A stretch of 64,000 nt of DNA, taken from positions 294 to 64,293 of the forward strand of contig JAAZPQ010000194.1 in assembly GCA_012797175.1 (NCBI GenBank), written 5' to 3'. The notes beneath the pieces were generated by a model, which saw nothing but the letters and a program-made list of their open reading frames with translations, made no database searches and was not told the DNA's origin. This document shows, one piece after another, positions 10,108 through 10,626 of the stretch. The position numbers and the translations under genes were made by a program. Within the stretch, counting starts at the first letter, position 1. Each line of letters starts with the position of its first letter. The stretch is from Bacillota bacterium (GTDB lineage: Bacteria; Bacillota; Dethiobacteria; DTU022).

Positions 10108-10626
10108 TTACTTTATTTTTTTAGGCCGCCGGAATAATTCTGCTGAGCTGAGATGATAAAGGGAGATCCGGCGAAAAAGTTTTTGTGCTTTCCAATCGGG
10201 AAGTTGCCACTCTTCATCGATCAGGTCGCTAAGACTATCACGGGGGGTGCGGACGCTGTTTGAACGCAGGATCTTCTGAAAAGAACCCTGCGGTAGTTTC
10301 CAGCCCAATTCGACGTGGTAAAGCCGGTCTGCGTCCTGCACCGAAATATACCAGTTATCATGCTCAGGGTTTACGTTTAGATCAAAATAGCTTTCTACGA
10401 CCTCTTCGCTGTCCCAGGTATATTTACAGACCCGTAGTAAAAAAGTAACGCCCGGCCATTGCTCTGCTCCCACTTTTTCTTTGAGGGCTTCCCTGGTCGG
10501 CAGGCTCAGCTCCCAGTAGGCGAAGATATTGTAGGGATCCCGGGGCAAGATCACCAGGCGGTCTTCGGCGTAGTATTGCGGCAGGGCCTCGCCGCGGGGT
10601 AAATAGCTTTTCTCTGTATGGTCCAC
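10108..10626 (-). CDS. DUF4912-like conserved hypothetical protein, a GH57-associated family
   Basis: 172 aa with no catalytic motif I recognise. The family assignment is from memory of recurrent DUF4912/GH57 neighbourhoods. Confidence 0.4.
   Translation of the reverse strand: MDHTEKSYLPRGEALPQYYAEDRLVILPRDPYNIFAYWELSLPTREALKEKVGAEQWPGVTFLLRVCKYTWDSEEVVESYFDLNVNPEHDNWYISVQDADRLYHVELGWKLPQGSFQKILRSNSVRTPRDSLSDLIDEEWQLPDWKAQKLFRRISLYHLSSAELFRRPKKIK

Follow-up and report, generated by a model that had tools for sequence, protein, structure and literature searches.

A gene for a DUF4912 protein and a gene for a GH57 protein of the glycogen-branching-enzyme type (GBE) form a two-gene module, which we found in the 64-kb stretch of bacterial DNA analyzed here (the window) and which is kept across at least Bacillota, Planctomycetota, Thermotogota and Omnitrophota. 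This tight, phylum-spanning pairing of DUF4912 with AmyC-type GH57 enzymes is a new element, for which we found no description in the searchable literature: searches on DUF4912 or PF16258 found nothing on glucans, and those on TM1437/TM1439 found only an unrelated promoter prediction. The gene context suggests an accessory or regulatory role for the DUF4912 protein, and we give an even chance to the reading that it serves AmyC-type GH57 enzymes as their dedicated partner or adaptor, with no catalytic activity of its own.

The DUF4912 gene (10108..10626, minus strand), the first of the module, encodes 172 aa from a GTG start to a stop codon at 10108-10110, and a strong ribosome-binding site (AGGAGGTG; 10632-10639, minus strand) can be read 5 nt before the start. 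An earlier note on this DNA had called the product DUF4912-like, and the Pfam profile of that family (PF16258) indeed matched it over its full length (profile positions 1-118 of 118; E = 6.2e-30; 104.3 bits against a cut-off of 29.4). This was the sole Pfam match in the protein, and a search of NCBIfam returned no model for it. The lack of a hydrophobic N-terminal segment, and of any Pfam match besides DUF4912, makes it plausible that the protein is soluble and cytoplasmic, the location assumed in the note. We detected 63 close homologues, and homologues occurred in many metagenomes and metagenome-assembled genomes (MAGs) at 34-87% identity, so that this is a conserved gene rather than a chance ORF; within the window it is present in a single copy. 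The protein bears the family motifs RDP, AYWE, LRV, NWY, SN, TPR and SDxIDEEW, and is a further member of a known, uncharacterized family.

Downstream of it, beyond a 34-nt intergenic spacer (10074-10107, minus strand) that holds the ribosome-binding site of the enzyme gene (AAGGAGG, 10086-10092), lies the second gene of the module (8442..10073, minus strand), encoding a 543-aa protein with Glyco_hydro_57 and BE_C domains. The spacing and shared direction described in the note agree with the ORF coordinates and the sequence. A scan of positions 8200-11000 found no terminator-like site between the two genes, which is consistent with their co-transcription; promoter and terminator counts in the scanned region were no different from those in shuffles. 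On the other side, a GalT-like/DUF4921 gene (10936..12201, plus strand) starts divergently 309 nt away, and the Pfam assignments of both flanking genes bear out the note's picture of a DUF4912 gene wedged between them. It is followed by a GH57 gene of the AmyA/4-alpha-glucanotransferase type (about 12131..14194, plus strand) and by a third GH57 gene (14224..15942, plus strand), both assigned by Pfam. These divergent genes (10936..15942) are kept in close relatives only and stand outside the conserved pair.

Altogether, positions 3137-15942 of the window make up a compact alpha-glucan island around the DUF4912-GBE pair. Its other end carries, by Pfam, a GT4/GT5 glycogen-synthase-like gene (3137..4417, plus strand) and an 828-aa fusion of NTP-transferase and phosphoglucomutase-like (PGM-like) domains (4512..6998, plus strand); by tblastn, many related loci have a counterpart of the fusion (31-81% identity), placed downstream of the GBE in convergent orientation. 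Between this fusion and the GBE lies a PGA_cap (CapA-like) gene (7033-8277), for which a tblastn match above our 100-bit listing threshold occurred in only one of the fetched loci (L025), so that it appears to be an insertion present in some forms of the island only. TrkA/TrkH potassium-uptake genes occur near the pair both in the window (16047-18964) and in Kosmotoga pacifica (L102, 226-2858), which may be coincidence.

The enzyme of the module belongs to a distinct subclass of GH57 GBEs. The catalytic motifs WLPE(189)C and PYD(351)TELFGHWW are present, with E189 and D351 invariant in GBE alignments, and the nearest solved structure is that of Thermotoga maritima AmyC (TM1438, PDB 2b5d; 515 bits, 46% identity, near gap-free). 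Alignment with 1ufa, 3n8t and 5wu7 revealed deletions at the positions of the lid loop and of beta5-beta6, and the protein accordingly lacks both the 17-22-residue flexible loop and the beta5-beta6 strands that characterize "true" GH57 GBEs as defined by Xiang et al. (2021). In addition, it carries an insertion of ~20 residues (GBE residues ~268-290) common to AmyC and all DUF4912-linked enzymes examined, and it scored only 361 and 313 bits against the NCBIfam equivalogs for the Thermus and Thermococcales enzymes, whose cut-offs are 1000 and 920. By these features the window GBE is of the AmyC-type, loop-less class, to which AmyC itself was assigned by Xiang et al. (PMC9291813).

We surveyed the linkage of the two genes from both sides. 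On the DUF4912 side, 17 loci came from genomes, with a single genome scanned for each species, and the best 80 of 553 matching stretches from metagenomes; the DUF4912 ORF and the GH57 GBE were placed in each locus by tblastn, a locus being evaluable if it had at least 300 nt of downstream sequence and linked if a same-strand GBE started no more than 500 nt downstream. Linkage was found in all 16 evaluable loci from genomes and in 64 of the 68 from metagenomes (80/84 overall), including named MAGs of Syntrophomonadaceae, Peptococcaceae and Planctomycetia, and the DUF4912 identity was below 45% in 50 of the 80 linked loci. The order was always DUF4912 then GBE, in every linked locus, and in 19/80 the two genes overlapped or abutted (gap of at most 2 nt). 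One exception, L057, was the only evaluable locus found with the two genes more than 500 nt apart: a radical-SAM gene, a DUF4116 gene and an unassigned ORF are inserted there (5757-9350), the GBE lies 3.6 kb further, and other GH57/GalT genes are adjacent. As for the remaining exceptions, L095 offered 669 nt of downstream sequence, in which no GBE matched, and L098 and L099 had no glucan genes in reach.

On the enzyme side, we used T. maritima AmyC as the query and inspected the genomic context of seven matches (Kosmotoga pacifica, Petrotoga olearia, Thermotoga-like contig, 99%-identical AmyC match, Omnitrophota MAG, Athalassotoga saccharophila and Fervidobacterium thailandense). A PF16258 gene stood immediately upstream on the same strand in 7/7, and the gap between the two genes was between -8 and +4 nt in 6/7. 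The other neighbors differed from locus to locus (tRNA synthetases, a Trk transporter, pyruvate:ferredoxin oxidoreductase, isoprenoid genes), and in Thermotogota the pair sits in unrelated neighborhoods; the conserved unit is therefore the DUF4912-GBE pair and not the glycogen island. The overlapping or abutting genes, seen in the surveys from both sides, suggest that translation of the two genes may be coupled. Strict pairing, fixed order, gene overlap and independence of the neighbors together form a pattern that, in operon biology generally, tends to mark the subunits of a single complex, or an enzyme together with an accessory protein of its own. One candidate fusion of the two genes, at L037, was rejected, as that locus holds two separate genes.

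The earlier note had made conserved linkage to GH57 in other genomes a test of its proposal, a possible accessory or regulatory factor of GH57 enzymes, and the two surveys bear the linkage out. They narrow the proposal to the AmyC-type class; the two other GH57 genes of the island lie outside the conserved pair. Three loci (L013, L014 and L017) contain a second GBE paralogue that has a 17-residue loop insertion and is devoid of the AmyC-type insertion; there, DUF4912 is co-directional with the AmyC-type gene at a gap of 22-26 nt, and the loop-bearing paralogue is divergent. In these loci the two GBE classes can be compared directly within a single genome; the loop-bearing paralogue adjoins a GH15 glucoamylase-like gene (L013, 2106-5735; also in L014 and L017).

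DUF4912 is far more widespread than this pairing: a profile search of 1.84 billion representatives returned 7,710 clusters at 50% identity (E up to 0.001). Typical members are 240-400 aa long, and at the N-terminus they have either a TM helix or a Rho_N/HeH motif, a long segment rich in Lys, Ala and Pro, or both of the latter; in longer members the DUF4912 core is followed by a linker and a C-terminal Ig-like domain. Such extended architectures also occur among GH57-linked members (L010, L012, L089 and Thermotogota). The window protein has neither a Rho_N or Lys-rich N-terminus nor the C-terminal Ig-like domain, and since its relatives carry such tethers or extra domains, it reads as the minimal, untethered form of a widely used module. 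In the long forms (e.g., L062, L089, L100 and P0121), the C-terminal ~80 aa are conserved (FWLxVxAELIVYGATEPDAxVTVxGxPIKLRPDGTFSLRFxLPDG...) and gave repeated sub-threshold matches to Glucodextran_B (PF09136; 20-27 bits, cut-off 27); this Glucodextran_B-like domain is absent from the window protein. A further group consists of giant proteins of ~900-1,630 aa (P0127-P0138, P0207, P0210, P0211 and P0252), in which a signal peptide and a PstS-like domain (PBP_like_2) are combined with a TM helix and with DUF4912 repeated 2-10 times in tandem; from this topology the repeats should lie in the cytoplasm. The partner domains detected in long and multi-repeat members were Rho_N, PBP_like_2 and the weak Glucodextran_B-like domain only, and no DUF4912-GH57 fusion protein occurred among these inspected architectures.

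Some members are annotated as "Rho termination factor domain protein", and cyanobacterial members have been discussed as "Rho-like" proteins of unknown function (PMC13613805). The Planctomycete Rho_N-DUF4912 proteins (~370 aa; L018, L019/L020, L101 and the P0094 contig) are encoded divergently beside the F-type ATP-synthase operon in 3/4 cases and upstream of ApbE in 2/4, and none of these long members adjoins a GH57 gene (4/4). Together with the generic character of the predicted fold described below, the Rho_N-bearing members and the ATP-synthase or ApbE neighbors of the Planctomycete genes would fit a function unrelated to glucans, either nucleic-acid-related or that of a generic FN3 spacer, for which adjacency to the GBE is an inherited, uncoupled operon arrangement. 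We regard this as very improbable for the module, because the window protein contains no Rho_N domain (PF07498) in a Pfam search, and because the pair and its order are kept across at least four phyla while the neighbors change and the genes frequently overlap, a conservation far beyond that of a neutral arrangement under vertical inheritance. Against a dedicated partner, however, stand the size of the family, the unlinked Planctomycete members and the forms with as many as 10 copies in tandem, placed after a PstS-like domain and a TM helix, which suggest that DUF4912 as such could be a module of general use.

We predicted the structure of the window protein in two monomer models, built from alignments of 28 and of 93 sequences, and counted conservation over 93 GH57-linked DUF4912 relatives. 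The core (residues ~20-130; 10237..10569, minus strand) is predicted to form a beta-sandwich of seven strands with one inserted helix (residues 42-52). The model superposes on FN3 structures, from which it differs by this extra helix between strands 2 and 3, and the core is thus predicted to be an FN3-like seven-stranded beta-sandwich, a fold of the binding type. The top structural neighbors were generic FN3 domains rather than starch-binding carbohydrate-binding modules (CBMs), and the fold search returned no enzyme-like matches. Nothing resembling a catalytic site or signature was found in the protein, in keeping with the note, which had seen no catalytic motif, and with the predicted sandwich. 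The likeness to FN3 is confined to structure: none of 28 DUF4912 members matched the Pfam fn3 profile, and DUF4912 matched none of the CBM family profiles searched (CBM20, 21, 25, 48 and others), in both cases even at E up to 10. Sequence and profile searches of the PDB found no solved DUF4912 relative.

The conserved residues of the core are R29-D30-P31, Y37-W38-E39, R65, W92, G108, F116, S122-N123 and P128; some of the most conserved positions would correspond to typical FN3 core positions. Alignments showed that the window protein carries all the family-wide residues (P16, Y19, R29-D30-P31, Y37-W38, R65, W92, G108, F116, S122-N123, P128, S133, D137-E138 and W140). Among the 93 relatives, G108, S122, P128 and W140 were 100% conserved, Y19, Y37 and W38 99%, P31 98%, and P16 and S133 97%, followed at 91-96% by N123, F116, R29/D30, W92, R65, E138 (92%) and D137 (91%). 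Two of the conserved elements lie outside the confidently packed core, as expected of interaction motifs. The first is a near-invariant LPxxY motif (L15-P16-x-x-Y19; 10570..10584, minus strand) directly before the first beta-strand, whose block (residues 11-20) had a pLDDT of 56 with 28 sequences and 74 with 93. The second is an acidic-aromatic segment, S133-x3-D137-E138-x-W140 (SDLIDEEW; 10207..10230, minus strand), with a pLDDT of about 58-60 in both models; since it is conserved yet not confidently packed in the monomer model, this SDxIDEEW segment is a candidate interface motif, although D137 and E138 are not kept in Thermotoga. Beyond it, the protein ends in a basic tail (pI 11.1; 10111..10206, minus strand) with a predicted helix (residues 145-157, WKAQKLFRRISLY) and a conserved SSxEL motif. 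The invariant Y19 also led us to consider a glycogenin-like self-glucosylating primer, which we rejected as a main hypothesis, since the protein has no transferase domain and is linked to the branching enzyme rather than to the synthase.

Instead of an enzyme subunit, the protein may be a granule or polymer scaffold, whose core would bind glucan as a stand-alone, CBM-like module and whose family would organize glycogen particles or tether them to the nucleoid or the membrane, much as PhaM does on PHB granules or PTST on starch; the window protein would then be a tether-less glucan binder that helps the GBE only indirectly. GH13 GBEs carry a CBM48 and GH57 GBEs have, to our knowledge, no CBM of their own. 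The relatives in which the core is preceded by Rho_N/HeH, by Lys/Ala/Pro-rich, histone-like segments or by TM helices would fit this explanation, as would the multi-repeat forms, which suggest multivalent polymer binding, and the setting of the window gene in a full alpha-glucan island. We nevertheless consider the scaffold somewhat unlikely. Neither sequence nor the top-ranked folds relate DUF4912 to starch-binding CBM families. The gene is linked specifically to the AmyC-type GBE and not to glycogen synthase or further glucan genes, and the pair stays together even in neighborhoods that have no such gene. Such specific and persistent linkage is better explained by an enzyme-specific partner.

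The properties of the AmyC-type enzymes themselves bear on what a partner might do. The loop and beta5-beta6 are missing in 92% of 2,497 GH57 GBE sequences (PMC9291813, Xiang et al.). Those of T. maritima, K. pacifica and P. mexicana showed branching activities of only 9-24 mU/mg and branching-to-hydrolysis ratios of 3.8-5.7, as compared with 168-550 mU/mg and a ratio near 40 for loop-bearing GH57 GBEs, and others, e.g., that of M. tuberculosis, showed zero activity (PMC9291813). The authors of that study proposed to exclude enzymes with neither element from the glycogen-branching enzymes, and stated that the in vivo substrate of the loop-less enzymes remains to be established (PMC9291813).

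One way to read these low ratios is that unchecked hydrolysis of a storage glucan, being costly, calls for a negative regulator, and that DUF4912, as an inhibitor or chaperone, restrains the high hydrolytic activity of the AmyC-type enzyme until the proper substrate is met; with its gene upstream and translation coupled, the inhibitor would be synthesized ahead of the enzyme. We consider this improbable: the protein bears no likeness to the proteinaceous inhibitors known for glycosidases, an inhibitory role hardly accounts for the tethered and multi-repeat relatives, and an activator would explain the same evidence just as well.

In the reading that we prefer, of a dedicated partner of the AmyC-type enzyme, a single transcript would yield both the DUF4912 protein and the GBE, often with their translation coupled. 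Through binding to the enzyme, to the glucan chain or to both, the partner would supply something that is missing from the bare catalytic chain. It may hold the acceptor chain or cover the cleft, so that branching is favored over hydrolysis; alternatively, it may place the enzyme on the glycogen particle. Physical binding, and any effect on activity or localization, we infer from the context and the predicted fold. Because the relatives vary in their N-terminal Rho_N/HeH, Lys-rich or TM extensions, the DUF4912 core could be the constant, enzyme- or glucan-binding part, with the extension setting the location.

Several observations count against a strict version of this reading, in which DUF4912 is an essential subunit. 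AmyC and the K. pacifica enzyme branch somewhat alone, and thus the partner is not strictly required for catalysis; in addition, there are members unlinked to GH57, fusions to GH57 are lacking among the architectures inspected, and the acidic pair of the DEEW motif is lost in Thermotoga. A bolder form, which we consider unlikely, is that DUF4912 is the missing subunit of the loop-less 92% of GH57 "branching enzymes", which seem almost inactive in vitro: it would dock through LPxxY and/or SDxIDEEW and supply in trans a cleft-covering or acceptor-holding element, so that a leaky hydrolase becomes efficient at branching or at some other transglycosylation, and the members tethered through Rho_N, Lys-rich or TM extensions would place glucan synthesis at the nucleoid or the membrane. 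If this were true, DUF4912 would be the first bacterial glycogen-enzyme adaptor family.

Branching-type GH57 enzymes occur widely and interest industry as a means of modifying starch; most of them are without the elements required for good branching, do poorly on their own and lack an established physiological role. The strictly co-encoded putative partner bears directly on this acknowledged open question about the AmyC-type class, and may explain why these enzymes work so badly by themselves. A partner role would also give a first function to a family of ~7,700 clusters now labelled DUF4912 or "Rho-like".

The T. maritima AmyC, K. pacifica and P. mexicana "GBEs" are of the same loop-less type as the window enzyme, and they were characterized in vitro without any partner. 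The searchable literature on AmyC-type enzymes treats the enzyme alone, and we found in it no discussion of the upstream gene; a text search of the AmyC re-characterization paper (PMC6616209) found no mention of an upstream gene, an operon or a gene cluster. In the "true" GH57 GBEs (those of T. thermophilus, T. kodakarensis and P. horikoshii), by contrast, a lid loop with a tip tyrosine and beta5-beta6 are part of the enzyme chain and raise the branching-to-hydrolysis ratio. The DUF4912-linked enzymes lack both elements, and a trans-acting replacement is therefore conceivable.

Other systems offer partial parallels. FN3 domains occur in bacterial glycoside hydrolases; DUF4912 differs from them in its lack of an fn3 Pfam match, its extra helix, its likely cytoplasmic location and its stand-alone form. 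PhaM of Ralstonia eutropha activates PHB synthase and tethers granules to the nucleoid by a Lys-rich tail. Like PhaM, DUF4912 may be a small partner of a storage-polymer enzyme, and its long forms carry Lys-rich or DNA-binding-like extensions; unlike it, DUF4912 would serve another polymer, shares no homology with PhaM and, in the window protein, has no N-terminal tether. Further parallels are the CBM48 of GH13 enzymes and plant PTST, in which a CBM48 and a coiled coil form a separate polypeptide adaptor that targets starch synthases to glucan. DUF4912 has no sequence similarity to these, its top fold matches are to FN3, and PTST is eukaryotic; the likeness lies in a non-catalytic beta-sandwich, here a predicted one, that would serve an enzyme building alpha-glucan.
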